Of a stretch of 64,000 nucleotides of DNA, positions 6,469 through 43,724 are shown piece after piece. The DNA is from Longimicrobiales bacterium (GTDB taxonomy: Bacteria; Gemmatimonadota; Gemmatimonadetes; Longimicrobiales; Gaopeijiaceae): positions 588,852-652,851 of the forward strand of contig OZ242201.1 in the NCBI GenBank assembly GCA_965206105.1, read 5' to 3'. Below the pieces are notes generated by a model. That model saw only the letters and a program-made list of their open reading frames with translations. It searched no databases and was not told the DNA's origin. Positions within the stretch are counted from its first letter, which is position 1. Each line of letters opens with the position of its first letter. Both the position numbers and the translations under genes were made by a program.

Positions 6469-7524
6469 ATGACGGTGTTTCCGCTGATGGGCGAACACGA
6501 CTACGAAAAGCTGGTTTTCTGCAACGACAACGACTCGGGACTCCGAGCGATCATCGCGATACATGACACGACCCTGGGCCCTGCACTGGGCGGGATCCGC
6601 ATGCTCCCCTACCCCACCGAGGAGGAGGCGCTGAACGACGTGCTGCGCCTGGCGCGCGGCATGACCTACAAGGCCGCGATCAGCGGCGTGGACCTGGGCG
6701 GCGGCAAGTCCGTCGTCATCGGCGACGCCAGAACGGGCAAGAACCCGGCGCTGCTCCGCGCCATGGGCCGGTTCATCGAGACGATGGCGGGCGAGTACAT
6801 AGCGGGACAGGACATCGGCACCAATTCCCACGACATGGCGGTGATCCGGGGCGCGACACGGCACGTGTCCTGTGTGAACGAGTCTGCCGGCGGCGCGGGA
6901 GACCCTTCGCGGACGACTGCGTACGGGGTCAGCTGCGGCATTCGCGCGGTGCTCAAGGCGACGAACGGGAGCGACTCGATCGGGGGGCGGCACATTGCGA
7001 TCCAGGGGCTCGGCAATGTTGGATTCGCGCTGGCGCGCTTCTGTCACGAGGCGGGCGCGCGGCTGACCGTGACCGACATCTACGAGCCGGTTCTGGCGAA
7101 GGCGGCCAGCGAGCTGGGGGCCGAGGTGGTCGGTCCGGACGCAATCTACGACGTGGAGTGCGACGTCTTCTCGCCGAACTCGATCGGCGCCGTGATCAAC
7201 GACGACACGATCCCGCGCCTGCGGTGTCCCGCGGTCGCCGGCGGTGCCAACAACGCGCTGGCCGAAGACCGCCACGGGGACGAGCTGAAGGCGAGGGGAA
7301 TCGTCTACGGACCCGACTTCCTGGTGAACGCGGGCGGCCTCATCCGCTCCCAGGAAGAGGTGAACGGCCGCGCGACCGAGGACTTCACGGTCTACTCCAA
7401 GGTGGCCAACATCTACGATCAGACCCTGCAGGTGATCGCGATGGCGGACGAGTTGGGGATCAGCACTGCGCGGGCGGCCGACTGGATGGCCGAGGAGAGG
7501 ATCGCGGCGGCGAAGGGGCGGTAG
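6469..7524 (+). CDS. ldh: leucine (Glu/Leu/Phe/Val family) dehydrogenase
   Basis: The ATG at 6469 is preceded by GAAGAGAGGAGGA. Motifs GGIRM, DLGGGKSVV and the Rossmann IQGLGNVG are present. Confidence 0.9.
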   Translation: MTVFPLMGEHDYEKLVFCNDNDSGLRAIIAIHDTTLGPALGGIRMLPYPTEEEALNDVLRLARGMTYKAAISGVDLGGGKSVVIGDARTGKNPALLRAMGRFIETMAGEYIAGQDIGTNSHDMAVIRGATRHVSCVNESAGGAGDPSRTTAYGVSCGIRAVLKATNGSDSIGGRHIAIQGLGNVGFALARFCHEAGARLTVTDIYEPVLAKAASELGAEVVGPDAIYDVECDVFSPNSIGAVINDDTIPRLRCPAVAGGANNALAEDRHGDELKARGIVYGPDFLVNAGGLIRSQEEVNGRATEDFTVYSKVANIYDQTLQVIAMADELGISTARAADWMAEERIAAAKGR

Positions 7525-7584
7525 AATGCCTGGGACCGGGCCAGCGGCTCGAAGGGATATGCTGCCAGGCAGAGATCCTGGACT

Positions 7585-7869
7585 TCAACGGGCCGTTACG
7601 GGAAAGAGGACTTCGCCGGTGAAGGCGTCGCTGACGGTGATCGCGGAGGTGGGACAGTTGCTCGCCGCCTCGAGAACGTCTTCCAGCGTGTCTCCCTCGG
7701 GGTCGACCACCTCGGACTGCCGCCAATGGTTGAGCGCGAAGACGCCGGGCGCCAGTTCCAGACACATGGCGCTGCCGACGCAGCGCAAGTGGTCGACCTG
7801 GATGTCCAGCGGCGGGGGCGGATTTCCGACCGGCCCGCGCGCGCGTGGTGTCTCGTTCATGCGGGCCAC
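7585..7869 (-). CDS. small ferredoxin (3Fe-4S/4Fe-4S type)
   Basis: CVGSAMC ... CPTSAI cysteine pattern. Start uncertain. Confidence 0.65.
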   Translation of the reverse strand: MARMNETPRARGPVGNPPPPLDIQVDHLRCVGSAMCLELAPGVFALNHWRQSEVVDPEGDTLEDVLEAASNCPTSAITVSDAFTGEVLFPVTAR

Positions 7870-7923
7870 CTTACCGGCAACTATCCAGCCCTGCCACGGG
7901 CAGCGAAGTGCTTAGTTTCATCC

Positions 7924-21414: not shown

Positions 21415-22614
21415 ATGGACACGAATCGGCGGGATTTTCTGAAGACGACGGTTGCCGCGGGCGGGGCTGTTGCGGCGGGGGTCACTCCTGTGGGGCTCGC
21501 GGGGTTGGCCGGGGGTGGTGGCGTGGGAGGCGCGTCGACGGCGGAGGGCGCGACGCCGCAGCCCAGCGCCGAGGCACAGACCAGGGCCGCGCAGTCGCTC
21601 CGCATCCTGATCCTGGGCGGGACCGGGTTCATCGGTCCGCACCAGGTCGAGTATGCGCTGTCGCGCGGGCACGAAGTCACGCTCTTCAACCGCGGCCGCA
21701 CCAACTCGCACCTCTTCCCCGGAGTCGAGAAGCTGGTCGGCGACCGCGAGAGCGACCTCTCCGCGCTGGAGGGGCGGAGCTGGGACGCGGTGGTGGACAA
21801 TTCGGCGACCAACGCGCCGCACTGGGTGGAGGCGAGCGCGAACCTGCTCAGGGACTCGTGCGAGCGCTACATCTTCGTCTCGACGCGGTCGGTCTACGCC
21901 GACACCAGCCGGGTGCCGATGTCGATCGAGGCGCCGGTCTGGACGTACGAGAACGCCGGCGTGGAGCGCGGCGCGGATCGGCTCCCCTACGGTCTCGGCA
22001 AGGCAATCTCCGAGCAGATCGCCCGGGACGTATTCGGCGAGGACCGCACCCTGGTCTTCCGGCCCGGCCTCATCATCGGCCCGGGCGACAACACGGACCG
22101 CTTCACCTACTGGCCCGTGCGCATCCACCGCGGCGGCGAGGTCCTCTCCCCCGGCGACGGCACCGACCCGGTGCAGATCATCGACGTGCGCGATTTCGGC
22201 GACTGGCTGGTGCGCATGGCCGAGGCGGGCGAGCACGGCACCTACAACGTCGTCGGCCCGGCGACGCCCCGTCCCATGAGCGAGATGCTCTACGGCATCC
22301 GCGCCGTGACCACCGCCGAGACCTCCTTCACCTGGGTGGATGCGGACTTCCTCCGCGAGGCGGGGCTGCGCCCCTACGGGGAGATGCCGGTGTGGCGCCC
22401 CGCCCGCGACGGGTTCGAGGGCTTCGCGCGCTTCGACCTCACGCCGGAAGTCGAGAAGGGCCTCACCTTCCGCTCGCTCGCCGACACGACCGCGGCGACG
22501 CTGGAGTTCCATTTCTCGCGTCCGGAGGAGCGGCAGGCCCGGGTGTTCAACAGGCTGAGCCCCGAGCGGGAGGCCGAGGTGCTGGCGGCGTGGCATGCGT
22601 CGCGGCGGGGGTAA
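21415..22614 (+). CDS. Tat-exported NAD(P)-dependent epimerase/dehydratase (SDR) family protein
   Basis: Twin-arginine motif NRRDFLK and Rossmann ILILGGTGFIG. Confidence 0.85.
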   Translation: MDTNRRDFLKTTVAAGGAVAAGVTPVGLAGLAGGGGVGGASTAEGATPQPSAEAQTRAAQSLRILILGGTGFIGPHQVEYALSRGHEVTLFNRGRTNSHLFPGVEKLVGDRESDLSALEGRSWDAVVDNSATNAPHWVEASANLLRDSCERYIFVSTRSVYADTSRVPMSIEAPVWTYENAGVERGADRLPYGLGKAISEQIARDVFGEDRTLVFRPGLIIGPGDNTDRFTYWPVRIHRGGEVLSPGDGTDPVQIIDVRDFGDWLVRMAEAGEHGTYNVVGPATPRPMSEMLYGIRAVTTAETSFTWVDADFLREAGLRPYGEMPVWRPARDGFEGFARFDLTPEVEKGLTFRSLADTTAATLEFHFSRPEERQARVFNRLSPEREAEVLAAWHASRRG

Positions 22615-22651
22615 GTCAAGCAAACCTTACAAACTGTAAAGCGAAGTTTAC
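22615..22651 (+). repeat. 37-bp AT-rich bipartite element, copy C (direct units)
   Basis: GTCAAGCAAACCTTAC-AAACT-GTAAAGCGAAGTTTAC. Starts right after the stop at 22614 and ends 1 nt before the ATG at 22653. Confidence 0.75.
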
Positions 22652-22652
22652 C

Positions 22653-24404
22653 ATGATGGGATTCGGATCGCGATCGGGGTGGTCCAGCAGCCTCGTGGCC
22701 ACGTTCGCCGTGGCTGGCGTCGCGCTGCTCGGCGCTTGCGCCGATGACGCTGCCGGGCCAGCCGCGCCCGCCGACCTGGTGCTGCGCGGGGGGGTGGTCG
22801 CCACGGTGGACGCCGACAACACGATGGCCGAGGCGGTGGCAATCACCGACGGGTGGATCGTGGCGGTGGGCAGCGACGAGGAGGTCGCCGCGTTCATCGG
22901 CGACGGCACCGAGGTGATCGAGCTGGACGGCCGGTTCGCCATGCCCGGCTTCATCGAGGGACACGGCCACTACATGAGCCTCGGCAACTCGAAGACGATC
23001 CTCGATCTGAACGACGCCGCCAACTGGGACGAGATCGTGCAGATGGTCGCCGAGGCGGTGGCCGACGCCGAGCCCGGCGAGTGGATCCGCGGTCGCGGAT
23101 GGCACCAGGAGAAGTGGGACCGGCCGCCCGACCCGGTCGTGGAAGGCAACCCGACCCACGCGACGCTAACCGCGGTCAGCCCGGAAAACCCGGTGCTGCT
23201 GGGCCACGCGTCGGGGCACGCGGCCTTCGCCAACGCGCTGGCTTTGGAACTGGGAGGCTTCACGAGAGACTCCGAACCGCCCCCCGGCGGCGAACTGGTT
23301 CGCGACGAGAACGGCGAACTGACCGGCCTCCTGCGCGAGACGGCCCAGGGACCGGTATCCGCGGCCTTCGCCGATTCGCAGCTTGGCCGCACGGCGGAGG
23401 AGATCGATGCCCAGTTCCGGCGCGAGGTAATGCTGGCCGCCGAGGAGGCGCTCTCCAAGGGCGTGACCTCGTTTCAGGATGCGGGCGCCGGCTTCGGCAC
23501 CATCGACCGCCTCAAGGAGATGGAGGCCGAGGGCGCGCTCCCCGTCCGCCTCTACATCATGGTCCGCCGCCAGTCCAACGAGGAGATGGATGCGCGTCTG
23601 CCCGACTACTACATGCCTTCCGAGGGGGACGACTATCTCACCGTGCGGTCGATCAAGCGCCAGATCGACGGGGCGCTCGGGTCGCACGGGGCGTGGCTGC
23701 TGGAGCCGTACGAGGACATGCCCGAATCGGTCGGGCTCGTGCTCGAAACGGTCGAGGACATCACGGGGACCGCGCACGTCGCGATCAAGCACGGGTTCCA
23801 GGTCAACACGCACGCGATCGGGGACCGCGCGAACCGCGAGGTCCTGAACATCTACGAGGCCGTCTTCGATTCGGCCGGCGGCGCGGAGGACCTGCGCTGG
23901 AGGATCGAGCACGCACAGCACGTCCACCCCGACGATGTGCAGCGCTTCGCTGAACTCGGCGTCCTCGCCTCGATGCAGGGCGTGCACGCCACCTCGGACT
24001 TTCCGTGGGTGCCCCTCCGCCTGGGCGATGACCGCACCGAGAAGCGGACCTACCTGTGGCGCTCGTTCCTCGACGCCGGCGTGCTCATCAACAACGGGAC
24101 CGACGTGCCGGTCGAGGACATCGATCCGCTCGCCAGCTTCCGCGCCTCGGTCACCCGCCGGACCGCCGACGGGTCCATCTATTACCCGGAACAGAACATG
24201 ACCCGTATCGAGGCGCTCCGCAGCTACACGGTCAACAACGCCATTGCCGCCTTCGAAGAGGAGTACAAGGGCTCGCTCGAGGTCGGCAAGCTCGGCGATG
24301 TGGTGGTGATCGATCGCGACATTCTCACCGTGCCGGACGGGGAGCTGGCGGACGCGCGCGTGGACATGACCATCGTGGGAGGAGTGGTGCGGTATGCGCG
24401 GTAG
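22653..24404 (+). CDS. amidohydrolase family (Amidohydro_3-like) lipoprotein
   Basis: Lipobox LLGAC. Motifs LRGGVVATVD, MPGFIEGHGH and NTHAIGD. Confidence 0.85.
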   Translation: MMGFGSRSGWSSSLVATFAVAGVALLGACADDAAGPAAPADLVLRGGVVATVDADNTMAEAVAITDGWIVAVGSDEEVAAFIGDGTEVIELDGRFAMPGFIEGHGHYMSLGNSKTILDLNDAANWDEIVQMVAEAVADAEPGEWIRGRGWHQEKWDRPPDPVVEGNPTHATLTAVSPENPVLLGHASGHAAFANALALELGGFTRDSEPPPGGELVRDENGELTGLLRETAQGPVSAAFADSQLGRTAEEIDAQFRREVMLAAEEALSKGVTSFQDAGAGFGTIDRLKEMEAEGALPVRLYIMVRRQSNEEMDARLPDYYMPSEGDDYLTVRSIKRQIDGALGSHGAWLLEPYEDMPESVGLVLETVEDITGTAHVAIKHGFQVNTHAIGDRANREVLNIYEAVFDSAGGAEDLRWRIEHAQHVHPDDVQRFAELGVLASMQGVHATSDFPWVPLRLGDDRTEKRTYLWRSFLDAGVLINNGTDVPVEDIDPLASFRASVTRRTADGSIYYPEQNMTRIEALRSYTVNNAIAAFEEEYKGSLEVGKLGDVVVIDRDILTVPDGELADARVDMTIVGGVVRYAR

Positions 24405-25053: not shown

Positions 25054-25315
25054 CGGCACCGGCGCCGACGATGTGCGGCGCAGACTCCTAGCGCCTCGGC
25101 ACTCTCGCCAGCACGCGAACTTCCGGTAGGGACCCTGGACTTGCGTTAGCGGAGGTAGAACATCTACATAGATTGGACATATACTGTTTCTTTATCTATG
25201 CTTCCGACGACCTGCTCATGTACGGTAATCGACAGCCTTCTGACGCAGGAAGGATACGATAAGGCGCTTAGGGGGTATCTGGCGTGGAACTCGGGCGATG
25301 GAGGTTTGGACCAAC

Positions 25316-28300
25316 ATGCGAACGCGATCCACGGCTGCCGGCTCGACCGCGGCCATGCTCCTCGCCGCGTTGGTTGCGCTTCTGCCGGGGGCGCCGGCCG
25401 GGGCACAGACCAGGGTTTCATCGGACTGGCCGCTCATCCCTCCCGAGGTAGGGGCCGGAGACACGTTCCGCCTGTTGTTCGTGACCTCCACCGAGGTTCA
25501 GCTCAACTCCGACAGCATCCACCACTACAACGCGTTCGTGCAGGCCCGTGCCGCCGCGGGCCATGCGGCCATTCAGTCGCACAGTTCGCTCTTCCGCGTC
25601 CTGGCCAGCACCGCCGCGGTCGCCGCGCGGGACAACACCGGCACGAACCCCGGCACCGATGGCCCCGGCGAGCCCATCTTCTGGCTTGGCAGCGGCGTCA
25701 GGGTCGCGGACGACTACGAGGACCTGTACGACGGGTACTGGGACAGCGAATCCTGGACCACCGAGGCGGGCGGATCGGGATCGGACCAGGCGCTTGGCAT
25801 ACTGAACGGCAGCACGGCGGACGGCCGCTCCAAGCCCAAGTGGCCGTTTCGGAACATTACGACCCAGGGCGAAAGGGTCGGCGGCGGAAAGCTGAACTCC
25901 GGCGGAATGCCCATGTACAGCGTGGACAGGGGCGCTGGTGCCGACGGTACGCTGTCCACCCGGGTCTACGCCCTCTCCTCCGTCTTCCAGGTAGCGCCCG
26001 ACACCCTGGGACCGGGCGGCATCTACGTGGCCGACGCGATGGCCGTCGAGGGCTACACCGCGGCCTTCGTCGTGACGATGGACGGGGCGCTGCCGGATGC
26101 GGCCACAGTGGACTACGAGACCTCGGACGGGACGGCCACCGCCGGATCCGACTACACGGCCGTTTCGGGGACGCTGACGTTCGCCGCGGGCGAGACCTCG
26201 AAAACCGTGACCGTAACGATCCCCGACGACGACGTCCACGAGGACTCCGAGGAATTCAGGCTGACGCTGAGCAACCCGAGCGCCAACGCGCGAGTCCTGG
26301 ACGCGATAGCGACGGGGCGGATCGACGGGGCCGAGCTTACGGCAGAGTTTGTCGGGGTGCCGACCAGTCACGACGGGGCGGCATTCGAATTCCTGCTCAG
26401 TTTCAGCGAAGAACCGGATTCGGCCTTCAGCTACCTGAACCTGAAGGGGGATGGAAGGCGGGCGGGCGCGCTTGCCGTGGCCAACGGACGGTTGGAGCGG
26501 ACGTACCGGTTCGGGTCGGACCACCGGAATCTTGTCTGGCGGATTCGCATCGCTCCGGACAGCGACGTCGCGGACGTTGCGATCACTTTGCTCGCGACGA
26601 CGGACTGCTCGGCGGCCAACGCGATCTGCACCGACAACGGGCGGCCGCTCTCGGTGCCGGTGACGGCGACGGTTCCGGGTCTGGCGCCCTGGCTTGCGGT
26701 GGTCGATGCGAGCGGGGTGGAGGGGGCGAACACGGCGGTGGACTTCACGGTGACGCTGAACCGCGCGGTGGCCGAAACCGTGACGGTGGACTACGCGACC
26801 TCCGACGGGACGGCGACCGCCGGAGCCGACTACACGGCCACGTCGGGAACGCTGACGTTCGCGCCGGGCGAGACCCGCAAGACGGTCTCCGTGCCATTGC
26901 TGGACGATGAAGTCGAGGAAAGCGCCGAGACGTTCACGCTGACGCTGAGCAATGCGTCGGGCGGCCGCGCGTATCTGTCGGACGCCACGGCAACGGGCAC
27001 CATCGCGGACGACGACTCGACGACACCGCCCGTGGGCGTCCCGCAGGGCGATGTATTGGTCAGCAACCTGGACCGACCGCTGGACTGGCGACCCAAGATC
27101 GGCATGGCAGACACTGTCGGCACCAGCCTCAATCAGCGGGGGGCACAGGTCTTTACCACCGGCGATTCAAGGGATGGCTACGAACTGACAGCGGTCGTGT
27201 TGAACTTTGCCTTCTACGAAGAGATCGACGGGGACAATCTGGAGGCATCGCTCCACTTGTTCGGGGTCGCAAGCGACCCGCTCGGGGAGAAGATCCTGGA
27301 CTTCGAGAATCCAACGACGTACGCCAGGTTCCGCGGTGACCGCGGCCCGGTGACGCTCGTACCTGCCGATGGCACGTCGGAGGAGAGCAGGATTCTTCGG
27401 CCCAATACCGACTATGTGATCCAGTTCGCTTTGCACACTTCAGGCATTGAGCGATGGTTCAAGATCGAGGCGACCAACAGTGGCGCTGAATCCGGAACGG
27501 ACGCCTGGCGGATTGCAGACGACAGTCATTGGAAGCAAACCGGCTGGATTGAATGGAGCACCAGAGACTATGTAATGAAGATGAAGGTCCTGGGCACACG
27601 CGTTGAACGTCCGCTTGTATTCGACGCAGGTCTGCCGGTGGCGCTGTCGGTAGCCGAGAACACGCCGGCGGGCACCAGGATCGGCCGACCCTTCACCGCC
27701 TCCCGCACGGATCCGAACGCTGCGTTGACCTATTCTCTGGACGGCCCCGGCAAGAACGATTTCGCGATTGATCCGGCGACTGCGCAGCTGAGGACGAAGG
27801 CGGTGCCGGACTTCGAGAACGCCAGCGAACACGCGCTTTCGATCATTGTGCGGGACGGACAGGATAGCGCCAGGCACGGACTGACGATCACGGTCTTGAA
27901 TCAGGACGAACCACCCGGCAGCCCGGCCGCGCCGACGCTGGAGTCGAGGGACGGCGAGAGTTTGACGGTGTCCTGGCTCGCCCCGGCCAACTCGGGCAAA
28001 CCGGACATTCTCCACTACGACCTGGGCTACCGCCTCGTGGGGTGGCCGGCCGGCGACCCGTTCAGAGACGGACCGCAGGATGTGGCGGACACCGTCGCGA
28101 GAATCCCGGCGCTGGTCGAGGGAGCTACGTACAAGGTGCGGGTGCGGGCGACCAACTCCGAAGGCGATGGGGAGTGGTCCGCGGCGCTCCTTGGTACGGT
28201 GCCGGGAACACCGCCGGTCGCGCCCTCCGTGACCGCCGTGGAACTGGCCGCGGACGAGTCGGGCGACCGGGCCTGGACATACGGAGAGAGCATCGAGGCG

Positions 28301-31042
28301 CGCGTCACATTCAACGAGCCGGTGTCGGTGAGGGGCAGCCCGACCCTTTGGATAACGATCGCGGGCGGGCCGGCGCCACTCGCCCTTGCGTCCGGTTCCG
28401 GGTCTGCAACGCTGGTGTTCGAACACGAGGTGACGGTTGACACGGCGAGCTACACCCGGATCGGGATCACGGAGAACAGCCTGGGATCGACCGGCGGGAC
28501 GATCGTGTCGCGAGCGACCGGAATGGTGGCGGATCTGTCCCACGAGGGCACGGAGCCTACGGCGGAACCGGACCCCGATGAGACGGTGCCCCTGACGGCG
28601 GAGTTCCAGGACATGCCGGAGTCGCACGACGGGAGCCGGATCCGGTTCGGGCTGACGTTCAGCGAGGAGTTGAGTCTCAGCCACCTGACACTGCGCGACG
28701 AGGCATTCGAGGTGACGGGCGGCACGGTGTTCGGCGCACAGCGCAAGGAGACGGGCAGCAACCGCCGCTGGACGATCTCGGTCGATCCGGCCCTGGCGAG
28801 CGAGACGGTGACGATCACGCTGCCGGAGACGACGGACTGCGGGGCGAGCGGCGCGATCTGCACGGGAGACAGCCGGCCGCTCTCGGCGACGGTCACGGCG
28901 ACGGTCGCGGGCGAGACGCACGTCCCGGCGCCCGAGCTGACGCTGGCCGGCGCGAGCGCGACCGAGGGCGGGAACGCGACGGTGGACTTTGCGGTGACAC
29001 TGAGCCGCGCTGCGACGGACACGGTGACGGTGCAGTATGCGACCTCGGACGGCACCGCGTCGGCCGGAACGGACTACACGGCCATGTCGGGCACGCTCAC
29101 GTTCGCTGCGGGCGACACGGCGAAGACGGTGTCGGTGCCTGTGCTTGACGATGCCGACGACGAGAACGACGAGACATTCACGCTGACCTTGAGCAACGCC
29201 TCCGGTGCGTCGCTCGGCAACACCACGGCCACCGGCACGATCGTCGACAACGACACCACCACCGCAACGCCGCTGACGGCGACCTTCGAGAACATGCCGG
29301 AGACGCACGACGGCAGCCGGATCCGGTTCGGTCTGACCTTCAGCGAGGATCTGAGCGTTAGCCACCTGACGCTGCGCGACGAGGCGTTCGAGGTGAACAG
29401 CGGCACCGTCTTCGGCGCGCAGCGCAAGCAGCCGGGCAGCAACCGCCGCTGGACGATCTCGGTCGATCCGGACTCGGCGGGCAGCGCCGTGACCATCATT
29501 CTGCCGGAGACGACGGACTGCGAGGCGAGCGGCGCGATCTGCACGAACGACAAACGGCCGCTGTCGCACTCGCTGACGGACACGGTGGCGGTGGAAGTGG
29601 AGGAGCCGACCGTCCCCTCGCTTGCCGTGGCCGGCGCCAGCGCCACCGAGGGCGACGCGGTCACCTTCACGGTGTCGCTGTCGGAGGCGAGCGGCCAGCG
29701 GGTGACGGTCGACTACGCGACCTCGGGCGGTACGGCGGCGAGCGGAACCGACTTCACGGCTGCATCGGGGACGCTGACCTTTGACGCGGGCGACAGATCG
29801 AAGACGGTGAACGTGACGACGACAGACGACTCGGATAACGAGGAGGACGAGACCTTGACACTGACTTTGAGCAACGCGTCCGGTGCAACGCTCGGCAACG
29901 CGACGGCGACCGGCACGATCGTCGACAATGACACCGCTGCAACGCCCCTGACGGCAACCTTCGAGGACATGCCGGAGACGCACGACGGGAGCCGGATCCG
30001 GTTCGGGCTGACCTTCAGCGAGGAGCTGGACGTCAGCTACCGGACGTTGCGCGACCACGCGTTCAGCGTCACGGGCGGCACGGTGTTCGGCGCGCAGCGC
30101 AAGCAGACGGGCAGCAACCGCCGCTGGACGATATCGGTCGACCCGACCTCGGCGAGCGACACGGTGACGATCACGCTGCCGGAAACGACGATCTGCGCTG
30201 CGACGGGCGCGATCTGCACGGCGGACAACCGGCCGCTGTCGCACTCGCTGACGGACACGGTCATCGACGCGGCCTCGTCGTCCTCGAGTGACATCGCCGG
30301 CGGAACCGAGCAGGGCGAAGTGGAGGCCGCGCTGGCCGCCGCGGGCGGCATCACCCCGGAGGAGGCCGCCGCCGCGCTGTTCGGCGAGGGGCGGCTGAGC
30401 GAGTCGCAGCTGGACGCCCTCGACCGCCTCGGCAACCGGAACGGCCGCTACGACATCGGCGATCTGGTCGCCTGGAGGGAGCGCTGCCGCCAGGGCACCG
30501 CGGACTGCGGGGGAAGCCCCGCGAGCCCGGGGCCGGCGGGTGCGGCGGCGCTGCTTGCGGTCGTGCCCGGCGGCCGCAGAGGGTCGCGGGGTGGTCCGGG
30601 AGGGCGGCGGGGTGCCGGGCGACGGCGGCGGACGGCCGCGCCCCGCCAGGCCCTGGCGATGCTCTTCGCCGTGGCCCTGGCCTGGTCCTGCACCGACGGC
30701 GGCCTGGTCGAACCGGCCGCCCCCGAACGGGCCCCGGACCCGGGCTACCTCACCGTGTCGCTGGTCACGCCGGCCGACAGCCGCGACAGCGGCGTACTGC
30801 TGGAACTCGAGGGCCCGGGCATCGCGGAGGTGCGGGCTCCCGGGTTCGAGCTGTTCGAATCCAGAGCCTCGGGGCGCCATCAGGTCATGGTAGCGGGCGC
30901 GCTGCGGGCGGGCCCCGTCCTTCAGATCCGCGTGCCGGACCGCAACCGGGTCTCGCTCTACCGGGTCCGCGTGATGCAGGTCGCGGGAGAGGACTACGCA
31001 CTCAGGGATGAAGCGGAGTACCGGACGGTGATCACGCGGTGA
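25316..31042 (+). CDS. giant modular surface protein 1 (Calx-beta x4, cadherin-like, FN3, two-Cys repeat x4, shared C-terminal cassette)
   Basis: Signal peptide MRTRSTAAGSTAAMLLAALVALLPGAPAGAQ. Calx-beta signature DY..(T/V)SGTLTF..GE..KTV.V...DD..E..E.F.L.L. Cadherin-like VAENTPAGT...NQDEPP. FN3 (LTVSWLAP...YKVRVRATN). Confidence 0.85.
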   Translation: MRTRSTAAGSTAAMLLAALVALLPGAPAGAQTRVSSDWPLIPPEVGAGDTFRLLFVTSTEVQLNSDSIHHYNAFVQARAAAGHAAIQSHSSLFRVLASTAAVAARDNTGTNPGTDGPGEPIFWLGSGVRVADDYEDLYDGYWDSESWTTEAGGSGSDQALGILNGSTADGRSKPKWPFRNITTQGERVGGGKLNSGGMPMYSVDRGAGADGTLSTRVYALSSVFQVAPDTLGPGGIYVADAMAVEGYTAAFVVTMDGALPDAATVDYETSDGTATAGSDYTAVSGTLTFAAGETSKTVTVTIPDDDVHEDSEEFRLTLSNPSANARVLDAIATGRIDGAELTAEFVGVPTSHDGAAFEFLLSFSEEPDSAFSYLNLKGDGRRAGALAVANGRLERTYRFGSDHRNLVWRIRIAPDSDVADVAITLLATTDCSAANAICTDNGRPLSVPVTATVPGLAPWLAVVDASGVEGANTAVDFTVTLNRAVAETVTVDYATSDGTATAGADYTATSGTLTFAPGETRKTVSVPLLDDEVEESAETFTLTLSNASGGRAYLSDATATGTIADDDSTTPPVGVPQGDVLVSNLDRPLDWRPKIGMADTVGTSLNQRGAQVFTTGDSRDGYELTAVVLNFAFYEEIDGDNLEASLHLFGVASDPLGEKILDFENPTTYARFRGDRGPVTLVPADGTSEESRILRPNTDYVIQFALHTSGIERWFKIEATNSGAESGTDAWRIADDSHWKQTGWIEWSTRDYVMKMKVLGTRVERPLVFDAGLPVALSVAENTPAGTRIGRPFTASRTDPNAALTYSLDGPGKNDFAIDPATAQLRTKAVPDFENASEHALSIIVRDGQDSARHGLTITVLNQDEPPGSPAAPTLESRDGESLTVSWLAPANSGKPDILHYDLGYRLVGWPAGDPFRDGPQDVADTVARIPALVEGATYKVRVRATNSEGDGEWSAALLGTVPGTPPVAPSVTAVELAADESGDRAWTYGESIEARVTFNEPVSVRGSPTLWITIAGGPAPLALASGSGSATLVFEHEVTVDTASYTRIGITENSLGSTGGTIVSRATGMVADLSHEGTEPTAEPDPDETVPLTAEFQDMPESHDGSRIRFGLTFSEELSLSHLTLRDEAFEVTGGTVFGAQRKETGSNRRWTISVDPALASETVTITLPETTDCGASGAICTGDSRPLSATVTATVAGETHVPAPELTLAGASATEGGNATVDFAVTLSRAATDTVTVQYATSDGTASAGTDYTAMSGTLTFAAGDTAKTVSVPVLDDADDENDETFTLTLSNASGASLGNTTATGTIVDNDTTTATPLTATFENMPETHDGSRIRFGLTFSEDLSVSHLTLRDEAFEVNSGTVFGAQRKQPGSNRRWTISVDPDSAGSAVTIILPETTDCEASGAICTNDKRPLSHSLTDTVAVEVEEPTVPSLAVAGASATEGDAVTFTVSLSEASGQRVTVDYATSGGTAASGTDFTAASGTLTFDAGDRSKTVNVTTTDDSDNEEDETLTLTLSNASGATLGNATATGTIVDNDTAATPLTATFEDMPETHDGSRIRFGLTFSEELDVSYRTLRDHAFSVTGGTVFGAQRKQTGSNRRWTISVDPTSASDTVTITLPETTICAATGAICTADNRPLSHSLTDTVIDAASSSSSDIAGGTEQGEVEAALAAAGGITPEEAAAALFGEGRLSESQLDALDRLGNRNGRYDIGDLVAWRERCRQGTADCGGSPASPGPAGAAALLAVVPGGRRGSRGGPGGRRGAGRRRRTAAPRQALAMLFAVALAWSCTDGGLVEPAAPERAPDPGYLTVSLVTPADSRDSGVLLELEGPGIAEVRAPGFELFESRASGRHQVMVAGALRAGPVLQIRVPDRNRVSLYRVRVMQVAGEDYALRDEAEYRTVITR
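30194..31042 (+). repeat. near-identical 849-bp 3' cassette (copy 1)
   Basis: Aligns to 37636..38484 at a constant offset of 7442. I count 10 mismatches and no indels by hand. Confidence 0.9.
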
Positions 31043-31416: not shown

Positions 31417-34400
31417 ATGACACGGAGAGTTCGAGGGATCGAGCTGGTTGGGGATGAGCGAGCGGTTGGAGGTTCCCTCGCACGGCGGCACGGCAGGCGC
31501 CTTGCCGCCGCGTTTCTGTTCGCGTGCGCCTTCGGCGCCCTCGCCACCGGCGCTGCCGCGCAGAACGAGCCCGGTGCACCGAGGAACCTCACGAAGGAAC
31601 TGGCCGACACGAACGACGTGATCGTGAGGTGGGATCCGCCGGATCGCGGCGGTCCCGTCGAGTACTACCAGTACCTGATCGGGGATCCGGAGGGATTCGG
31701 TTCATTCTGGAGACGGATCGCCGGCAGTGATTCGACCACGACATCCTACACCTTCGAGGACGTCCCCGGCGGAGAGAGCCAGTTGAACATCCGGGCGCGG
31801 AACAGCGACGGAGCGGGGCAACGGGCAAGCGTGATCGTGAGAATCAATCGGCCGGCCACCGGGCAGCCGCGAATATCCGGCCGGCGCCATGTGCCCAACC
31901 GTCTGAGAGCCAATCTACACCTTGTCGAGGACGAAGACGGCCTGAGGAAGGAACTCCTGGATGGCTCCTCGCACAACCCGTACCGCTACCAGTGGCTGCG
32001 CGGAGACGCCGAACCGGAAGCGTGCGACTTCACCCGGTTCGGGCGGAAGGAATACGAGATGGGCCTGGCCAAGGAGTACAGGCTGAAGCCGGCGGACGCC
32101 GGCGATAGCCTCAGGGTCGCCGTCTGCTTCCGGGATCTCATGTCCGAGACCAACGTGGAGATGGTGATCAGCGACTATACCGAGGTCATCGAGGCCGATA
32201 CCCGGCCACCGGGGGTCAAGAGAGCGTTCACCAGCGAGGGAGGCGGCGGCGTCACGCTCTTCTTCGACGAGATCCTGAACCCCGGGGCCGACCCGCTGGA
32301 CGACATCGACGAGAACGATCCGCCCGCCGAGTGCGACAGTTCGTGGCTGCCGCCGCGGAGCGCGTTCCGGGTGAGCGTGGAAGGGGGAAAGCGCACCTAT
32401 CGTCCGCGCGAGGTCACCGTCCAGTATTGCAGCAAGAGTACGGGCAGGAGGGACAGAATCGGTCCCCTGGACGGCAGGGTCCACCTGGATCTGGGGACGA
32501 CCCAGCTGTTCAATCGGGGGATCAAGCAGGGACAGTCGGTCAGGGTCATCTACACCGATCCCACGTCGGACGACGACAAGGCCGCCCTGCAGGACCGGAC
32601 CGGCAACGATGTCGTAAGCTTCGACGTGGAGGTCGAGAACCGCTCCACGCAAGCCCCGAGCGACGAGGACGTTTCGGCGGAGCCCAAGCCCAAGTCGGTG
32701 TGGGTACCCCCCGACGGGCGCACCATCCGCATCACCTTCGACGAACCCCTCAACCCGGAGCGCGAATCGCCGGCGGACGCGTTCACCGTGACGCAGGGGA
32801 ACGCTTCCCTGTCCGTCAACAATGCCTTGCTGGATGGTCCGCGCGCGCGGGTCACCCTCCAGGTGTATCCGCGCGTCCGGCAGGGCGGGAGCGTCACCGT
32901 GGGCTACCGGAACCCCGGGGGGAACGACGCCCTGCAGGACGTGGACGGCTTGCTCGCGAAGACCTTCAGCCGCCGGGCGGCGAACAGCTCGGCCCTGAAG
33001 CCCGGGCTGCGGCCCGTATCCGCCGAGGTCCAGGCCGATGGCCTGGAGGTGGAAATGCGTTTCAACACCAGGCTGCTTGAGAACGACGTGTCGCCCGGCG
33101 CCTTCACGATGCAGGTCGGTGGCACGGCGTACACGTTTGGAGACATAGAATTCTTCGACAACGGCAACTACATGCTCCTCTCGCAGTTTGGGGGGGTTGT
33201 CCCGGCGGACGAGACGGTCACGGTGGGCTATACCGAGCCGGCGCACGGCGCTCTGCTCCTGGCCCAGGACTCGAGGACGGCCGGTTCGTTTTCCCGCTTC
33301 GGGGCTACGAACTCATCGGAGTGGCGTGACGTGCCGGTCGCCGTCGACGCGGTCGCGGAGGAGCTGGACGCGTTCGACATTCTGTTCGTGGGGGAACTGG
33401 ATACCACAGTGGGATCTCCGCCGAACAGCGCCTTCAACGTGACGATCGACGGCACGGCGACCACCTTCGATTCGGTTCGAGTGGTCGCATCGGACAGGGT
33501 CCGGATTTCGGGTCTTGCGAGGCAGATGAAAACGGGCCAGCGCGTTGTGGTCTCATACACCCAACCGGCCACCGGGATCGTATTGCAGAGCGCGACAACA
33601 GGAAACGCGCTCGCCGGCTTCGAGCTGAGAGTGACGCTGGTCTTCCCGCCGAAGCCGGTGGGTGCGCAGGTGTCGGAGTCAGTCCGCCACAGGCTCTGGA
33701 TAGAGTTCGACCGCCCGATCTCACCGGACAACTTTCCGCCGACGTCGGCGTTCACAGTGAAGGTCAACGGCGTGGCGCGCACGGTGCACTCGGTCTCCCG
33801 CGGCTCGGCATCCGAACCGGAGTTGGTGTACCTGACATTCCCCACACTCGTGCGCGGCGACCCGGTCACCGTGAGTTACGAAAAGCCCGCGGGCTCCAGG
33901 CGGCTCCGGGGAACCAACTCCAGGGAAGTCGGCAGCTTCAGCGACTACCGGGTGGACAACCCAAATCCAGGCGTGCCGCGGTTGCTGAGACTGACCTGGT
34001 CGCTTGAAGACGACGAGGATAGGTTCAGCAAGGTCTTGGTCAACCTCACTTTCGACGCCGATCTGTCGTCGTCGTTGCCGTCAGAGTCGGCGTTTACGGG
34101 ATCGACGTTCACTGTAGCTCAAGGTGGGGGCGTGAATCGAGTGCGCTTTGACGTAGACGAAGTGTGGCTTGATTCCAACAATCCCAGAAGGCTCCGGCTG
34201 AAGACCTCCATTTTCGAAGCCTCCATAAGAGAAGAAATCGTCATTGGATACACCAAACCCACGTCGGGGAACACGCTCCAGGGCGCACGCGGCCACGAAG
34301 TGCCCAGCTTTTCCTTTACCGGAGATGCCGTCCGGGCAAATGGGCAAAACGCCCCCCCCTCCCCGGTCACGGCGGAGTTCACCCAACTGCCGCTACTTCA

Positions 34401-37400
34401 CGCCGGCGAGGTATTCACCGTCCGCCTCGTCTTCAGCGAGGAGTTCGCCGTGACGGCCGACCAGATCCGGGCTGGGCTGACGGTGACCGGCGGTTCGCTG
34501 ACGGCGCTGGCCCGGGTCACCGACGGCGAGGACCGCCAATGGGATCTGACGGTCACGCCGGACGCGGCGGCGGATCCGGTGGGCCTGACGCTCACGCCGA
34601 AGGAGAGCTGCGAGACGGAGAATGCGATCTGCACGGAGCAGGGCGGCCACCTCGAGGCAGAGGCCGTCGCGGAGGTAGCCGGACGCGAGCCCACGCACGT
34701 GGTGAGCGCGCGGCTGACCTCGCACCCGGGGGCCAACGGGACCTGGGACACCGGCGAGACCGTTACGGCGGCGGTCGAGTTCAGCCGCCAGGTCAGCTAT
34801 CAGGGCCCCCCGGGCGTGACGCCGACGCTGGGGATCACGCTCGACGGGACGCGCCGGGAGGCGGCGCTCACGAGCACGGGCTGGACCGACACGCTCACCT
34901 TCAGCCACGCCGTCACCGCAGCCGACAGCGGCGCCACGACCGTCGTGTTGGTTGCGAACGGCCTGGCGCTGAACGGCACGCTTCTCTTCGATAGCGACGC
35001 CTACCGGCTCGAACCGGAAGTCCCCGCCGACACGCTCTTGACGACGCCGCTGACGGCAAGCTTCGAGGACATGCCCGAGTCGCACGACGGGAGCCGGATC
35101 CGGTTCGGCCTGACGTTGAGCGAGGAACCCAGTGTCGGCCATACGGCCCTCCGCGACGAGGCGTTCGAGGTCACTGGCGGCACCGTCTTCGGCGCGCAGC
35201 GCAAGGAGTCTGGGAGCAACCGCCGCTGGACGATCTCGGTCGACCCGGACTCGGCGGCCGCAACGGTGACGATCACGCTGCCGGAGACCACGGACTGCGA
35301 AGCGGCGGGCGCGGTCTGCACGGCAGACGGCCGGCCGCTATTGGGCTCGCTGTCGGCGACGGTCGAGGGCGAGGAGCGCGGCCCGGAGCTGAGCGTGGGC
35401 GACGCGAGCGCGACGGAGGGCGACACGGTCGCCTTTGCGGTTTCGTTGTCGGTGGCGAGGGACGAGCAGGTGACGGTGGACTACGCGACCTCGGACGGGG
35501 CGGCGGAGAGCGGCACGGATTTCACGGCCGCGTCGGGCACTCTGACCTTCGCCCCGGGCGAGCTGTCGAAGACGGTGGGCGTCGCGACGGCCGACGACTC
35601 GGACGACGAGGAGGACGAGACCTTCACGCTGACGCTGAGCAACGCCTCCGGCGCGGGCCTGCGCGGCGCAACGGCGACCGGCACGATCGTCGACAACGAT
35701 TCAACGGTGCTCACCGTGAGCTTCGAGGATCTGCCGGAGTCACACAACGGGATGGCGCTTAATGTGCGCCTCGCGTTCAGCGAGGAGGTGGAGGTTGGCC
35801 ACGAGACGATTCGCAGCGCGTTGGAGGTGACGGGCGGCTCGGTGACCGGCGTGAGCCGCAGTCAAGGCGCCAGCAACCGACGCTGGAGGGTCACGGTCGA
35901 GCCCGCTTCGAAGACGGACACGGTGACGGTCACGCTGCCGGAGACGACGAACTGCGACGCAAGCGGCGCGATCTGCACCGGGGACGACCGGCCGCTGTCG
36001 CACTCGCTGTCCGCGACGATTGCCCCGCCGACGCTGCTGACCGCGACCTTCGAGGACATGCCGGCCACCCACGACGGGACCCGGATCAGGTTCGGCCTGT
36101 CGTTCAGCGAGGAGCTGGAGGTCAGCCACCTGACGCTGCGCGACGAGGCGTTCGAGGTGACGGGCGGCACGCTGTTCGGCGCTCAGCGCAAGGAGAGAGG
36201 CAGCGACCGGCGCTGGACGGTATCGGTCGATCCGGTCTCGGCGGACAGCACCGTGACGATCACGCTGCTGGAGACGACGGACTGCGACGCGGACGGCGCG
36301 ATCTGCACGTACGACAACCGGCCGCTGTCGCACTCGCTGTCGGACACGGTGGCGGTCGAAGGGGAGGAGCCGACCGTCCCGTCGCTTGCGGTGGCTGACG
36401 CGAGCGCCGCCGAGGGCGACACGATCACATTCACGGTGTCGCTGTCGGCCGCGAGCACCGACCAGGTGACGGTCGACTACGCGACCGCGAGCGGTACGGC
36501 GGAGAGCGGAACCGACTTCACGGCGGTGTCGGGCACACTGACCTTCGAAGCGGGCGACAGTTCGAAGACCGTGAGCGTGGCGACAACGGACGACTCGGAC
36601 GAGGAGGAGGACGAGTCATTCACGCTGACCTTGAGCAACGCCTCCGGTGCAGGCCTCGGCGACGTCACGGCGACGGGCACGATCGTCGACAACGACGCCA
36701 GCGTAACGCCGCTGACGGCGACCTTCGAGGACGTGCCGGAGTCGCACGACGGCAGCCGGATCAGTTTCAGCCTGACGTTCAGCGAGGAGCCCAGCGTGGG
36801 CTACCGGACGCTGCGCGACGAGGCCTTCGAGGTGACGGGCGGCACGGTCTTTGGTGCCCAGCGCAAGGAGACGGGCAGCAACCGCCGCTGGACGATCTCG
36901 GTGGATCCGGACTCGGCGACCGCAACGGTGACGATCACCCTGCCGGAGACGACGGACTGCGAGGCGGAGGAAGCGATCTGCACGGACGACGAGCGGCCGC
37001 TGTCGCACTCGCTGACGGACACGGTGGCGGTGGAAGTGGAAGAGCCGACCGTTCCGTCGCTTGCCGTGGGCGACGCCAGCGCCACCGAGGGCGACGCGGT
37101 CACATTCACGGTGTCGCTGTCGGAGGCGAGCGGCCAGCGGGTGACGGTCGACTACGCGACCTCGGGCGGTACGGCGGCGAGCGGAACCGACTTCACGGCC
37201 GCGTCGGGGACGCTGACGTTCGACGCGGGCCAAACGTCGAAGACGGTGAGCGTCGCGACGATCGACGACGCGGTCGACGAGGAGGACGAGACGTTCACGC
37301 TCACCCTGGGCAACCCCTCCGGCGCGAGCCTCGGCGACGCCGCGGCGACCGGCACGATCGTCGACAACGACACCGAAGCGCCCGAGCCGCTGACGGCGAC

Positions 37401-38484
37401 CTTCGAGGACATGCCCGGCACCCACAACGGAAGCGCGTTCACCTTCGGGCTGACCTTCAGCGAGGAGTTCTCGGTCAGCTACCGGACGTTGCGCGACTCG
37501 GCGTTCGCCGTGACGGGCGGCTCGGTGACCCGGGCGAAGCGCAAACAACCGGCCAGCAACCTGCGTTGGACGATCACGGTCGAGCCGGCTTCGACAAGCG
37601 ACACGGTGACGATCACGCTGCGGGAGACCACGGATTGCGCTGCGACGGGCGCGATCTGCACGGCGGACAACCGGCCGCTGTCGCACTCGCTGACGGACAC
37701 GGTCATCGACGCGGCCTCGTCGTCCTCGAGTGACATCGCCGGCGGAACCGAGCAGGGCGAAGCGGAGGCCGCGCTGGCCGCCGCGGGCGGCATCACCCCG
37801 GAGGAGGCCGCCGCCGCGCTGTTCGGCGAGGGGCGGCTGAGCGAGTCGCAGCTGGACGCCCTCGACCGCCTCGGCAACCGGAACGGCCGCTACGACATCG
37901 GCGATCTGGTCGCCTGGAGGGAGCGCTGCCGCCAGGGCACCGCGGACTGCGGGGGAAGCCCCGCGAGCCCGGGGCCGGCGGGTGCGGCGGCGCTGCTTGC
38001 GGCCGTGCCCGGCGGCCGCAGAGGGTCGCGGGGTGGTCCGGGAGGGCGGAGGGGTGCCGGGCGACGGCGGCGGACGGCCGCGCCCCGCCAGGCCCTGGCG
38101 ATGCTCTTCGCCGTGGCCCTGGCCTGGTCCTGCACCGACGGCGGCCTGGTCGAACCGGCCGTCCCCGAACAGGCCCCGGACCCGGGCTTCCTCACCGTGT
38201 CGCTGGTCACGCCGGCCGACAGCCGCGACAGCGGCGTGCTGCTGGAACTCGATGGCCCGGGCATCGCGGAGGTGCGGGCTCCCGGGTTCGAGCTGTTCGA
38301 ATCCAGAGCCTCGGGGCGCCATCAGGTCATGGTAGCGGGCGCGCTGCGGGCGGGCCGCGTCCTTCAGATCCGCGTGCCGGACCGCAACCGGGTCTCGCTC
38401 TACCGGGTCCGCGTGATGCAGGTCGCGGGAGAGGACTACGCACTCAGGGACGAAGCGGAGTACCGGACGGTGATCACGCGGTGA
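31417..38484 (+). CDS. giant modular surface protein 2 (FN3, many Ig-like repeats, two-Cys repeat x6, Calx-beta x3, shared C-terminal cassette)
   Basis: Signal-like RRLAAAFLFACAFGALATGAAAQ. FN3 (PRNLTKE...IRARNSDG). A series of about 100-aa repeats ends in V(G/S)Y..P; the Ig-like/Big_5-like assignment is tentative. Calx-beta signatures. Confidence 0.85.
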   Translation: MTRRVRGIELVGDERAVGGSLARRHGRRLAAAFLFACAFGALATGAAAQNEPGAPRNLTKELADTNDVIVRWDPPDRGGPVEYYQYLIGDPEGFGSFWRRIAGSDSTTTSYTFEDVPGGESQLNIRARNSDGAGQRASVIVRINRPATGQPRISGRRHVPNRLRANLHLVEDEDGLRKELLDGSSHNPYRYQWLRGDAEPEACDFTRFGRKEYEMGLAKEYRLKPADAGDSLRVAVCFRDLMSETNVEMVISDYTEVIEADTRPPGVKRAFTSEGGGGVTLFFDEILNPGADPLDDIDENDPPAECDSSWLPPRSAFRVSVEGGKRTYRPREVTVQYCSKSTGRRDRIGPLDGRVHLDLGTTQLFNRGIKQGQSVRVIYTDPTSDDDKAALQDRTGNDVVSFDVEVENRSTQAPSDEDVSAEPKPKSVWVPPDGRTIRITFDEPLNPERESPADAFTVTQGNASLSVNNALLDGPRARVTLQVYPRVRQGGSVTVGYRNPGGNDALQDVDGLLAKTFSRRAANSSALKPGLRPVSAEVQADGLEVEMRFNTRLLENDVSPGAFTMQVGGTAYTFGDIEFFDNGNYMLLSQFGGVVPADETVTVGYTEPAHGALLLAQDSRTAGSFSRFGATNSSEWRDVPVAVDAVAEELDAFDILFVGELDTTVGSPPNSAFNVTIDGTATTFDSVRVVASDRVRISGLARQMKTGQRVVVSYTQPATGIVLQSATTGNALAGFELRVTLVFPPKPVGAQVSESVRHRLWIEFDRPISPDNFPPTSAFTVKVNGVARTVHSVSRGSASEPELVYLTFPTLVRGDPVTVSYEKPAGSRRLRGTNSREVGSFSDYRVDNPNPGVPRLLRLTWSLEDDEDRFSKVLVNLTFDADLSSSLPSESAFTGSTFTVAQGGGVNRVRFDVDEVWLDSNNPRRLRLKTSIFEASIREEIVIGYTKPTSGNTLQGARGHEVPSFSFTGDAVRANGQNAPPSPVTAEFTQLPLLHAGEVFTVRLVFSEEFAVTADQIRAGLTVTGGSLTALARVTDGEDRQWDLTVTPDAAADPVGLTLTPKESCETENAICTEQGGHLEAEAVAEVAGREPTHVVSARLTSHPGANGTWDTGETVTAAVEFSRQVSYQGPPGVTPTLGITLDGTRREAALTSTGWTDTLTFSHAVTAADSGATTVVLVANGLALNGTLLFDSDAYRLEPEVPADTLLTTPLTASFEDMPESHDGSRIRFGLTLSEEPSVGHTALRDEAFEVTGGTVFGAQRKESGSNRRWTISVDPDSAAATVTITLPETTDCEAAGAVCTADGRPLLGSLSATVEGEERGPELSVGDASATEGDTVAFAVSLSVARDEQVTVDYATSDGAAESGTDFTAASGTLTFAPGELSKTVGVATADDSDDEEDETFTLTLSNASGAGLRGATATGTIVDNDSTVLTVSFEDLPESHNGMALNVRLAFSEEVEVGHETIRSALEVTGGSVTGVSRSQGASNRRWRVTVEPASKTDTVTVTLPETTNCDASGAICTGDDRPLSHSLSATIAPPTLLTATFEDMPATHDGTRIRFGLSFSEELEVSHLTLRDEAFEVTGGTLFGAQRKERGSDRRWTVSVDPVSADSTVTITLLETTDCDADGAICTYDNRPLSHSLSDTVAVEGEEPTVPSLAVADASAAEGDTITFTVSLSAASTDQVTVDYATASGTAESGTDFTAVSGTLTFEAGDSSKTVSVATTDDSDEEEDESFTLTLSNASGAGLGDVTATGTIVDNDASVTPLTATFEDVPESHDGSRISFSLTFSEEPSVGYRTLRDEAFEVTGGTVFGAQRKETGSNRRWTISVDPDSATATVTITLPETTDCEAEEAICTDDERPLSHSLTDTVAVEVEEPTVPSLAVGDASATEGDAVTFTVSLSEASGQRVTVDYATSGGTAASGTDFTAASGTLTFDAGQTSKTVSVATIDDAVDEEDETFTLTLGNPSGASLGDAAATGTIVDNDTEAPEPLTATFEDMPGTHNGSAFTFGLTFSEEFSVSYRTLRDSAFAVTGGSVTRAKRKQPASNLRWTITVEPASTSDTVTITLRETTDCAATGAICTADNRPLSHSLTDTVIDAASSSSSDIAGGTEQGEAEAALAAAGGITPEEAAAALFGEGRLSESQLDALDRLGNRNGRYDIGDLVAWRERCRQGTADCGGSPASPGPAGAAALLAAVPGGRRGSRGGPGGRRGAGRRRRTAAPRQALAMLFAVALAWSCTDGGLVEPAVPEQAPDPGFLTVSLVTPADSRDSGVLLELDGPGIAEVRAPGFELFESRASGRHQVMVAGALRAGRVLQIRVPDRNRVSLYRVRVMQVAGEDYALRDEAEYRTVITR
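37636..38484 (+). repeat. near-identical 849-bp 3' cassette (copy 2)
   Basis: See 30194..31042. Confidence 0.9.
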
Positions 38485-43588: not shown

Positions 43589-43724
43589 AAACCAGTCCAG
43601 CCCTTGACATCGGCAAACGCTGTTAGCTCGTCGTCTTGTGTCGTAGTATCTTGATTGGTCGAGAATGTATAGAAATGTATCGACCCGAAAACTGAGGCCA
43701 GCCTACCGCCAGCAGGCAGGACCC

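Follow-up and report, generated by a model that had tools for sequence, protein, structure and literature searches.

A two-cysteine repeat unit of giant bacterial proteins, a predicted Ig-like module on the fringe of Pfam Big_12

Introduction

A 64,000-nucleotide stretch of the genome of a Longimicrobiales bacterium (Gemmatimonadota; contig OZ242201.1, positions 588,852 to 652,851; hereafter the window, with coordinates counted from its first base) has a base composition of 68% G+C and carries four very long plus-strand open reading frames (ORFs). A first-pass annotation, made from the sequence alone, had described in these four giant genes a recurring domain of ~105 amino acids (aa) with two cysteines that it could not assign to any family. 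This raises the question of what the unit is and what it does in proteins of this size. We report that the unit belongs to a large family with a confidently predicted immunoglobulin (Ig)-like fold and recurrent, weak similarity to the Pfam family Big_12 (PF19078). The explanation that we favour, and consider probable as a whole, is that the unit is an acidic, secreted, disulfide-stapled Ig-like module with a structural or adhesive role in stalks, where it stands beside Calx-beta domains in giant proteins.

Results

Eighteen copies of the unit in the window

The peptide given as an example in the first-pass annotation is the exact translation of 28592..28912 (107 aa), and it was used to seed a jackhmmer search against all open stretches of at least 60 aa in the six frames of the window. 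The search converged on 18 full-length copies and no others, with domain E-values from 1e-31 to 1e-51, recovering the 4, 6, 2 and 6 copies that had been counted for genes 1 to 4. For gene 3, the count of two holds only if 38481..43450 is read through; taken as separate ORFs, its two parts carry one copy each. Pairwise identity between copies has a median of 51% (range 30–98%), and the net charge is negative in 17 of the 18 (-2 to -13) and neutral in one. All 18 contain exactly two cysteines with the spacing C-x6-C, as had been noticed at first reading. The columns T2, H12, R35, V41, G44, W60, P66, V73, L77, C83, A88, C90 and L97 are invariant, and the skeleton proposed earlier (LTA.F...P..H.G, FSE, R, V..G, W, P, V.(I/V).L, C, A(I/V)C and R.L) falls on invariant or near-invariant columns.

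The unit is predicted to fold as an Ig-like beta-sandwich

AlphaFold2 (AF2) models were built from a 44-sequence alignment for the unit alone and from a 36-sequence alignment for unit-plus-Calx-beta modules. Unit 2 modelled alone gave a pLDDT of 89.9 and a pTM of 0.81; the two-domain model gave a pLDDT of 95.4 and a pTM of 0.71, with the unit part at 95–98 throughout, the cysteine loop included. DSSP assigned strands to residues 3–6, 17–23, 40–42, 44–51, 59–66, 73–77 and 101–107, and one helix to residues 31–38. These strands span residues 3 to 107 of the unit, supporting its boundaries. Residues 78–100 form a long, irregular segment in which C90-T91 pair with residue 96, making a small hairpin around a D-G turn. 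The model has the two-sheet sandwich, the approximately seven strands and the length of ~100 residues that define an Ig-like or E-set domain.

Foldseek searches with the unit returned no PDB match at E<=1e-3 (best E>=0.02, TMq<=0.58) and none at that threshold in BFVD (best E 4e-3, TMq 0.70). The top PDB matches were all Ig-like, namely LdtMt2 BIg, BIgI, MG domains and nanobodies. The other half of the two-domain model, Calx-beta, served as an internal control and matched NCX1/CALX CBD1 and the integrin beta4 Calx-beta domain with E-values down to 1e-9; against the Ca2+-binding NCX1/CALX CBD1, identity was 27–37% and TMt 0.83–0.89. The two-domain model found its matches through this half only. 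Modelling the unit with and without Calx-beta, as the first-pass annotation had suggested, yielded a confident beta-sandwich whose unit half finds only generic Ig-like matches. By these models, the unit is predicted to be an Ig-like beta-sandwich without a close solved relative.

The unit lies on the far fringe of Big_12

Whole-protein Pfam scans of the four giant proteins listed only Calx-beta, Cadherin, fn3 and SWM_repeat above cut-off, together with GH16 in genes 3 and 4; Big_12 was absent from these scans and from those of nine other family members. NCBIfam gave zero matches for three units scanned alone, and PDB sequence profile searches with the unit alignments gave chance-level matches only. 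When unit copies were compared with Pfam separately, PF19078 (Big_12, 'Bacterial Ig-like domain'; model length 102, gathering cut-off 27 bits) was the sole recurrent match, found for 7 of the 18 copies at E<=10, and 11 copies had no Big_12 match even at that threshold. Unit 2 scanned alone matched only PF19078, at E = 0.082 and 13.6 bits. The highest scores in the window are those of units 5 and 7 (Table 1), and two metagenome relatives, P0001 and P0003, scored 30.3 and 27.3 bits. In a diversity set of 94 family members sharing <55% identity, 11 matched Big_12 at E<=0.01, the best at 9.8e-6 and, by comparison, ~26 bits, with none clearly above the cut-off.

One reading of these results is that the unit is a plain Big_12 domain, for which the Pfam model is too narrow, and nothing new. 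It is favoured by the exclusive recurrence of this one model, by alignments that are colinear and keep a constant register (profile positions 5/6–92, 17–94, 16–71 and 26–97 of 102), and by the precomputed PF19078 annotation that P0001 and P0003 carry. However, the gathering cut-off is passed by fringe members only (unit 5, P0001 and P0003), leaving 17 of the 18 window units and the family at large below it, and neither the diversity set nor the whole-protein scans gave a Big_12 match clearly above it. We consider this reading unlikely. From the Pfam scans, the unit is better described as a probable remote Big_12 relative that is effectively not captured by the current model. We found no function described for Big_12/PF19078 in the literature; in the only paper found to name Big_12, it figures as a generic Ig-like interaction domain.

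The initial view that the unit could not be assigned to a known family stands in that no curated model reliably covers it, and needs amending in that weak Big_12 matches recur and the predicted fold is Ig-like. A significant match to an existing domain was found marginally, in unit 5, and Big_12 is itself functionally uncharacterised. To call the unit 'unassigned' is fair in practice, as annotation pipelines would leave it blank. The reading of the unit as a diverged Calx-beta domain was rejected: hhalign gave a probability of 0.7% against the nine intact Calx-beta copies of the window, and the Pfam scans placed zero Calx-beta matches on any unit.

The cysteine pair is kept or lost as one

We extracted 554 full-length domains from the best 150 family proteins. 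Exactly two cysteines are present in 548 of them, none in 5, three in 1 and one in 0, and the C-x6-C spacing is kept in 531. C83 and C90 are each conserved at 99.1%, followed by H12 (97.8%), P66 (96.9%), F23 (95.1%), P9 (94.8%) and A88 (94.6%). All five domains without cysteines have lost the 'ETTDCxAx' loop through one and the same clean 7-residue deletion and carry E or T in place of C90. The pair is jointly present or jointly lost in 553 of the 554 domains. Clean loss of the loop together with a coupled pair is the pattern expected of a loop-stapling disulfide. Mean-field direct coupling analysis (DCA) of 596 domain sequences was applied to a contact between P..HDG and the C-x6-C loop; the top couplings were gap or indel artefacts of the deletable 79–86 loop, and the only informative signal was the C83–C90 coupling. 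Judged from this conservation pattern, an intradomain C83–C90 disulfide is most likely.

His12 and the two cysteines, perhaps with D13, D82 or D93, might instead form a Zn, Cu or Fe site and make the unit a metal-binding or redox module. The histidine is nearly as conserved as the cysteines, DSSP reports isolated beta-bridges at residues 11–12 and 90–91, where the two segments may be adjacent, and four units weakly match a 'phage zinc binding domain' across C-x6-C, although these matches (best E 0.013) are far below threshold. Yet His12 is retained in all five Cys-less domains and both cysteines in all 12 His-less ones; such independent loss is not the pattern of a His-Cys-Cys metal site, and a joint site was rejected as the primary reading on this ground. 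Moreover, just three ligand-type side chains are conserved, and in secreted proteins the oxidising environment favours a disulfide between two nearby cysteines. We regard a metal site as very unlikely. A thioester or isopeptide domain was also rejected on inspection of the conserved columns, which hold no Cys-Gln or Lys/Asn/Glu signature.

Architecture of the four giant genes

All four giant proteins begin with Sec-type, signal-peptide-like N-termini. Their domain map, made with hidden Markov models (HMMs) derived from the window, shows that unit and Calx-beta mostly alternate as ~225-aa modules (Table 1). The map bears out the ten alternating Calx-beta domains reported at first reading, which fall as 4, 3, 1 and 2 in genes 1 to 4. 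Units also follow one another directly, as had been described for a pair that we place at 35710..36354; a triple lies at 45522..46487. The C-terminal layout is common to all four proteins: a unit, ~132 aa, and a conserved terminal domain of ~125 aa. This terminal domain has no Pfam match and is present in 12 of the 150 family representatives; it may be a lineage-specific sorting or anchoring domain. In 3 of the nine other family members scanned (P0065, P0078 and P0081), a FlgD_ig-like domain occupies the C-terminus instead.

Table 1. Positions of the repeat unit, the giant genes and associated features in the window
Feature	Coordinates	Strand	Description and evidence
Unit 1 (gene 1)	26336..26680	+	Divergent, 8-aa insertion; jackhmmer domain E 5.9e-32; 2 Cys
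Unit 2 (gene 1)	28592..28912	+	Example of the first-pass annotation; jackhmmer, 2 Cys, AF2 models
Unit 3 (gene 1)	29273..29590	+	jackhmmer, 2 Cys
Unit 4 (gene 1)	29948..30262	+	Last before ~132-aa segment and C-terminal domain; jackhmmer, 2 Cys
Unit 5 (gene 2)	34366..34683	+	Only copy above Big_12 cut-off (29.1 bits); jackhmmer, 2 Cys
Unit 6 (gene 2)	35050..35370	+	jackhmmer, 2 Cys
Unit 7 (gene 2)	35710..36024	+	First of back-to-back pair; Big_12 23.5 bits; jackhmmer, 2 Cys
Unit 8 (gene 2)	36037..36354	+	Second of back-to-back pair; jackhmmer, 2 Cys
Unit 9 (gene 2)	36712..37029	+	jackhmmer, 2 Cys
Unit 10 (gene 2)	37390..37704	+	jackhmmer, 2 Cys
Unit 11 (gene 3)	41685..42005	+	Upstream of frameshift; jackhmmer, 2 Cys
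Unit 12 (gene 3)	42356..42670	+	ORF 42212..43450, other frame; jackhmmer, 2 Cys
Unit 13 (gene 4)	45522..45839	+	First of three consecutive divergent units; jackhmmer, 2 Cys
Unit 14 (gene 4)	45858..46175	+	jackhmmer, 2 Cys
Unit 15 (gene 4)	46191..46487	+	Most divergent copy (LTAWW...); jackhmmer, 2 Cys
Unit 16 (gene 4)	47211..47543	+	jackhmmer, 2 Cys
Unit 17 (gene 4)	47898..48218	+	jackhmmer, 2 Cys
Unit 18 (gene 4)	48570..48884	+	98% identical to unit 12; jackhmmer, 2 Cys
Giant gene 1	25298..31042	+	1914 aa; signal peptide, 4 Calx-beta, cadherin, fn3, 4 units, conserved C-terminal domain
Giant gene 2	31417..38484	+	2355 aa; signal peptide, fn3, SWM repeats, 6 units, 3 Calx-beta, C-terminal domain
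Giant gene 3	38481..43450	+	~1657 aa if read through; GH16, cadherin-like, SWM repeat, 2 units, 1 Calx-beta, C-terminal domain
Giant gene 4	43665..49688	+	2007 aa; GH16, SWM repeats, 6 units, 2 Calx-beta, C-terminal domain
~132-aa segment and ~125-aa C-terminal domain	30269..31039, 37711..38481, 42677..43447, 48891..49685		Motif '...WSCTDGGLVEP...YRVRVMQVAGEDYALRDEAEYRTVITR'
GH16 domains, N-terminal, genes 3 and 4	38784..39248, 44028..44486		Weak similarity to kappa-carrageenase and beta-glucanase models
Near-identical [unit + Calx-beta] module regions	28592..30262, 35050..37704, 41685..42670, 47211..48884		

The modules of unit plus Calx-beta, ~675 nucleotides long, are 77–97% identical in DNA between the four genes, and the protein sequences of units 12 and 18 agree at 98%, pointing to duplication or gene conversion between paralogues in the recent past. 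Across the eight most similar units, strands C, E and F are near-invariant; variation lies in loops 26–33 and 67–72 and at positions 84 and 86, inside the cysteine ring, as well as 92 and 94.

From their domain content, two of the four giants, encoded by genes 3 and 4, are likely enzymes on long stalks. Beta-sandwich carbohydrate-binding modules (CBMs) often follow marine glycanases, and the unit might accordingly be a CBM that tethers the GH16 heads, and the whole proteins, to algal or host glycans. The N-terminal GH16 catalytic domains would fit such a role, as would the concentration of variation between near-identical copies in loops; faint, sub-threshold matches were seen to CBM_56, a GH79 C-terminal domain and fn3_5, and to a PDB glucosaminidase chain (E 0.65). 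On the other hand, no CBM family was significant, and genes 1 and 2 and most scanned family members are without a glycoside hydrolase. The single conserved aromatic residue (W60) lies in a strand, in the alternating pattern that core residues show, and 4 to 25 copies per protein are typical of stalk repeats, not of CBMs. A CBM is, on balance, decidedly improbable.

A 1-nucleotide deletion near 42208, inside a Calx-beta domain, divides gene 3 between ORFs 38481..42215 and 42212..43450. The site at 42195..42215 reads 'TCAAG-ACGG', and one extra base is found there ('TCAAGGACGG' or equivalent) in all nine paralogous Calx-beta segments of the window and in aligned related loci. Gene 3 is either a recent pseudogene or bears an assembly error at ~42208.

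Downstream of the giant cluster, ORF 54506..58048 encodes a large repeat protein of the BNR/Asp-box, sortilin-Vps10-type beta-propeller kind. Most of the other flanking ORFs that were scanned lacked a Pfam match; those with one encode a TAT-signal epimerase (21415..22614) and an amidohydrolase (21858..24404).

A large family in uncultured bacteria

When 1.84 billion representative proteins (clusters at 50% identity) were searched exhaustively with the family profile, 5,157 family clusters passed E<=1e-3, of which 1,601 also passed E<=1e-30. The best 150 proteins reach 6,494 aa, with up to 25 matched stretches reported per protein. Calx-beta is present in 106 of these 150 representatives, and what comes directly after a unit is another unit in 263 cases, Calx-beta in 140 and something else in 246. 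Partner domains elsewhere in the family are Calx-beta, fn3, cadherin-like and SWM_repeat domains, with FlgD_ig-like domains at the C-terminus. Full-size relatives are unnamed except for one 'SwmB domain-containing protein'.

The window DNA is ~99% identical to contig CBDBUB010000006.1 of a Longimicrobiales (Gemmatimonadota) metagenome-assembled genome (MAG). A genome scan with two peptide patterns from a narrow alignment, and so biased towards the window's own subfamily, found 26 loci in 18 MAGs. These belong to Longimicrobiales, to Dehalococcoidia and Tepidiformaceae (Chloroflexota), to Alphaproteobacteria, to Gammaproteobacteria and Pseudomonadales, and to Candidatus Poriferihabitaceae; unit-carrying loci outside Longimicrobiales show 41–59% identity. 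Two of the 18 MAGs have anecdotal links to sponges, one of them assigned to Ca. Poriferihabitaceae and the other an SB0670 bin. Ca. Poriferihabitaceae is an Arenicellales family, described in a sponge genome note, with genera named for sponge life, and SB06xx bins are listed among the sponge-associated Entoporibacteria. For the remaining MAGs, a literature search on their accessions and on Longimicrobiales genome notes gave no functional or host information.

All 52 word-index matches of the family come from ENA assemblies, one of them also from NCBI, with zero from JGI, UniRef or Logan, which suggests that one kind of recent metagenome project accounts for most of the sampling of the family to date. 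Many of these 52 short metagenome 'proteins' begin at the Met inside '...DMPE.HDG' and probably represent pieces of larger genes. An ENA contig (L027, ERZ26167216) carries a decayed module copy at 7361..8450, as short fragmented ORFs with Calx-beta and unit pieces, ~3.4 kb from an ISL3-type transposase fragment.

Discussion

How the unit may work

Taken together, we infer that the unit is a secreted, disulfide-bonded spacer or adhesion module. In this proposal, each copy would be an acidic beta-sandwich of ~105 residues, built from approximately seven strands with a single short helix following strand B, and belonging to a distinct sequence family on the far fringe of Big_12. The near-invariant cysteine pair would sit in the long stretch that leads from the 'VTITLP' strand to the last strand, where the C83–C90 disulfide would close an 8-residue ring just before a C-T-x-D-G-R-x-L beta-hairpin. 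Placed head to tail, or alternating with Calx-beta domains of the Ca2+-binding type, the units would form a long stalk in giant surface or extracellular proteins, of which some have a GH16 glycanase head and others cadherin, fn3 or SWM repeats. The job of the unit would then be structural or adhesive: it would space and present other domains and may take part in binding. Our confidence in the fold and in the role as an extracellular repeat is higher than in the proposal as a whole; it is lower for the disulfide and for any binding function.

Several points weigh against this proposal. The disulfide is argued from the conservation of the two cysteines. His12, D13/G14, E25, D82 and D93-G94-R95 are conserved beyond the apparent need of a passive spacer, and such strongly conserved residues hint at a specific site for Ca2+, another metal or a ligand. 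The pTM of the two-domain model says little on rigidity. Dehalococcoidia are monoderm, which bears on the route of secretion.

A bolder reading takes the unit for a habitat-specific 'symbiosis module', largely restricted to bacteria of sponges or similar animal hosts and shared horizontally across at least three phyla, that with Calx-beta would form giant surface proteins docking on or mimicking a Calx-beta-rich extracellular matrix of the host. The phyla exchanging it could be Gemmatimonadota, Chloroflexota and Pseudomonadota, a candidate target could be the MAFp4 arms of the sponge aggregation factor, and the binding face could consist of the disulfide-stapled variable loop with the conserved HDG/DGR patch. 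The MAFp4 arms contain 29 Calx-beta domains (PMC11670116), and a significant enrichment of Calx-beta, cadherin and fn3 has been reported for sponge-symbiotic Actinobacteriota (PMC11706023). We consider this reading unlikely; by analogy with these systems, a host-matrix docking role is an attractive but unproven lead.

What the family adds

The unit family represents novelty at the level of the family, within a familiar type of repeat of bacterial surface proteins, and not a new fold. It reveals no new mechanism, overturns no expectation and will not surprise a specialist; it adds a variant with a putatively disulfide-stapled loop to the bacterial Ig-like repertoire. Its practical weight is larger. 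Because no database model captures the unit, about one quarter of each giant protein, and of thousands of relatives, is left unannotated. With a dedicated model, 5,000 or more protein clusters would be annotated, and giant adhesin-like proteins of uncultured Gemmatimonadota, Dehalococcoidia and Proteobacteria would gain better domain maps. Such a model would also provide a marker with which to ask whether such giant proteins are specific to host-associated consortia, in which Calx-beta, cadherin and fn3 are already treated as signatures of symbiosis. A database entry is worthwhile in view of how large the family is, of its near-invariant H/C/C signature and of its spread across phyla, which is possibly host-associated.

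Comparison with known systems

The partner domains of the unit (cadherin, fn3 and Calx-beta) are classes known from the 'eukaryotic-like' adhesion proteins of sponge symbionts, with enrichment reported in sponge-symbiotic Actinobacteriota (PMC11706023); unlike them, the unit itself is on no list of eukaryotic-like domains, and no eukaryotic homologue of it came up, although no search was aimed at one. With Calx-beta (PF03160), the unit shares a beta-sandwich build (~115 aa in Calx-beta), an acidic character, a presumed extracellular setting here and an alternating arrangement, whereas the Calx-beta copies are without the cysteine pair. The likeness to Big_12 extends to a length of ~100 aa, the Ig-like sandwich class, repetition in bacterial surface proteins and ~90 of 102 profile positions colinear with the unit, but the Big_12 model misses ~90% of the unit family along with all window copies except unit 5. 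Comparable, too, are other bacterial Ig-like stalk repeats of giant adhesins (Big_1/2/3/5/13, SWM_repeat, the BIg domain of L,D-transpeptidase and BIgI of the group B Streptococcus (GBS) beta protein), which are likewise tandem sandwiches of ~100 aa in very large secreted proteins. The best Foldseek matches of the unit are of this type (4z7a and 4huc, with TMq 0.53–0.58, and 6v3p), and SWM_repeat domains sit in the same giant proteins. Measured against these repeats, the unit has no PDB match at E<=1e-3 and nil sequence similarity, and among them a C-x6-C loop of disulfide type and the P..HDG motif are specific to the unit family.

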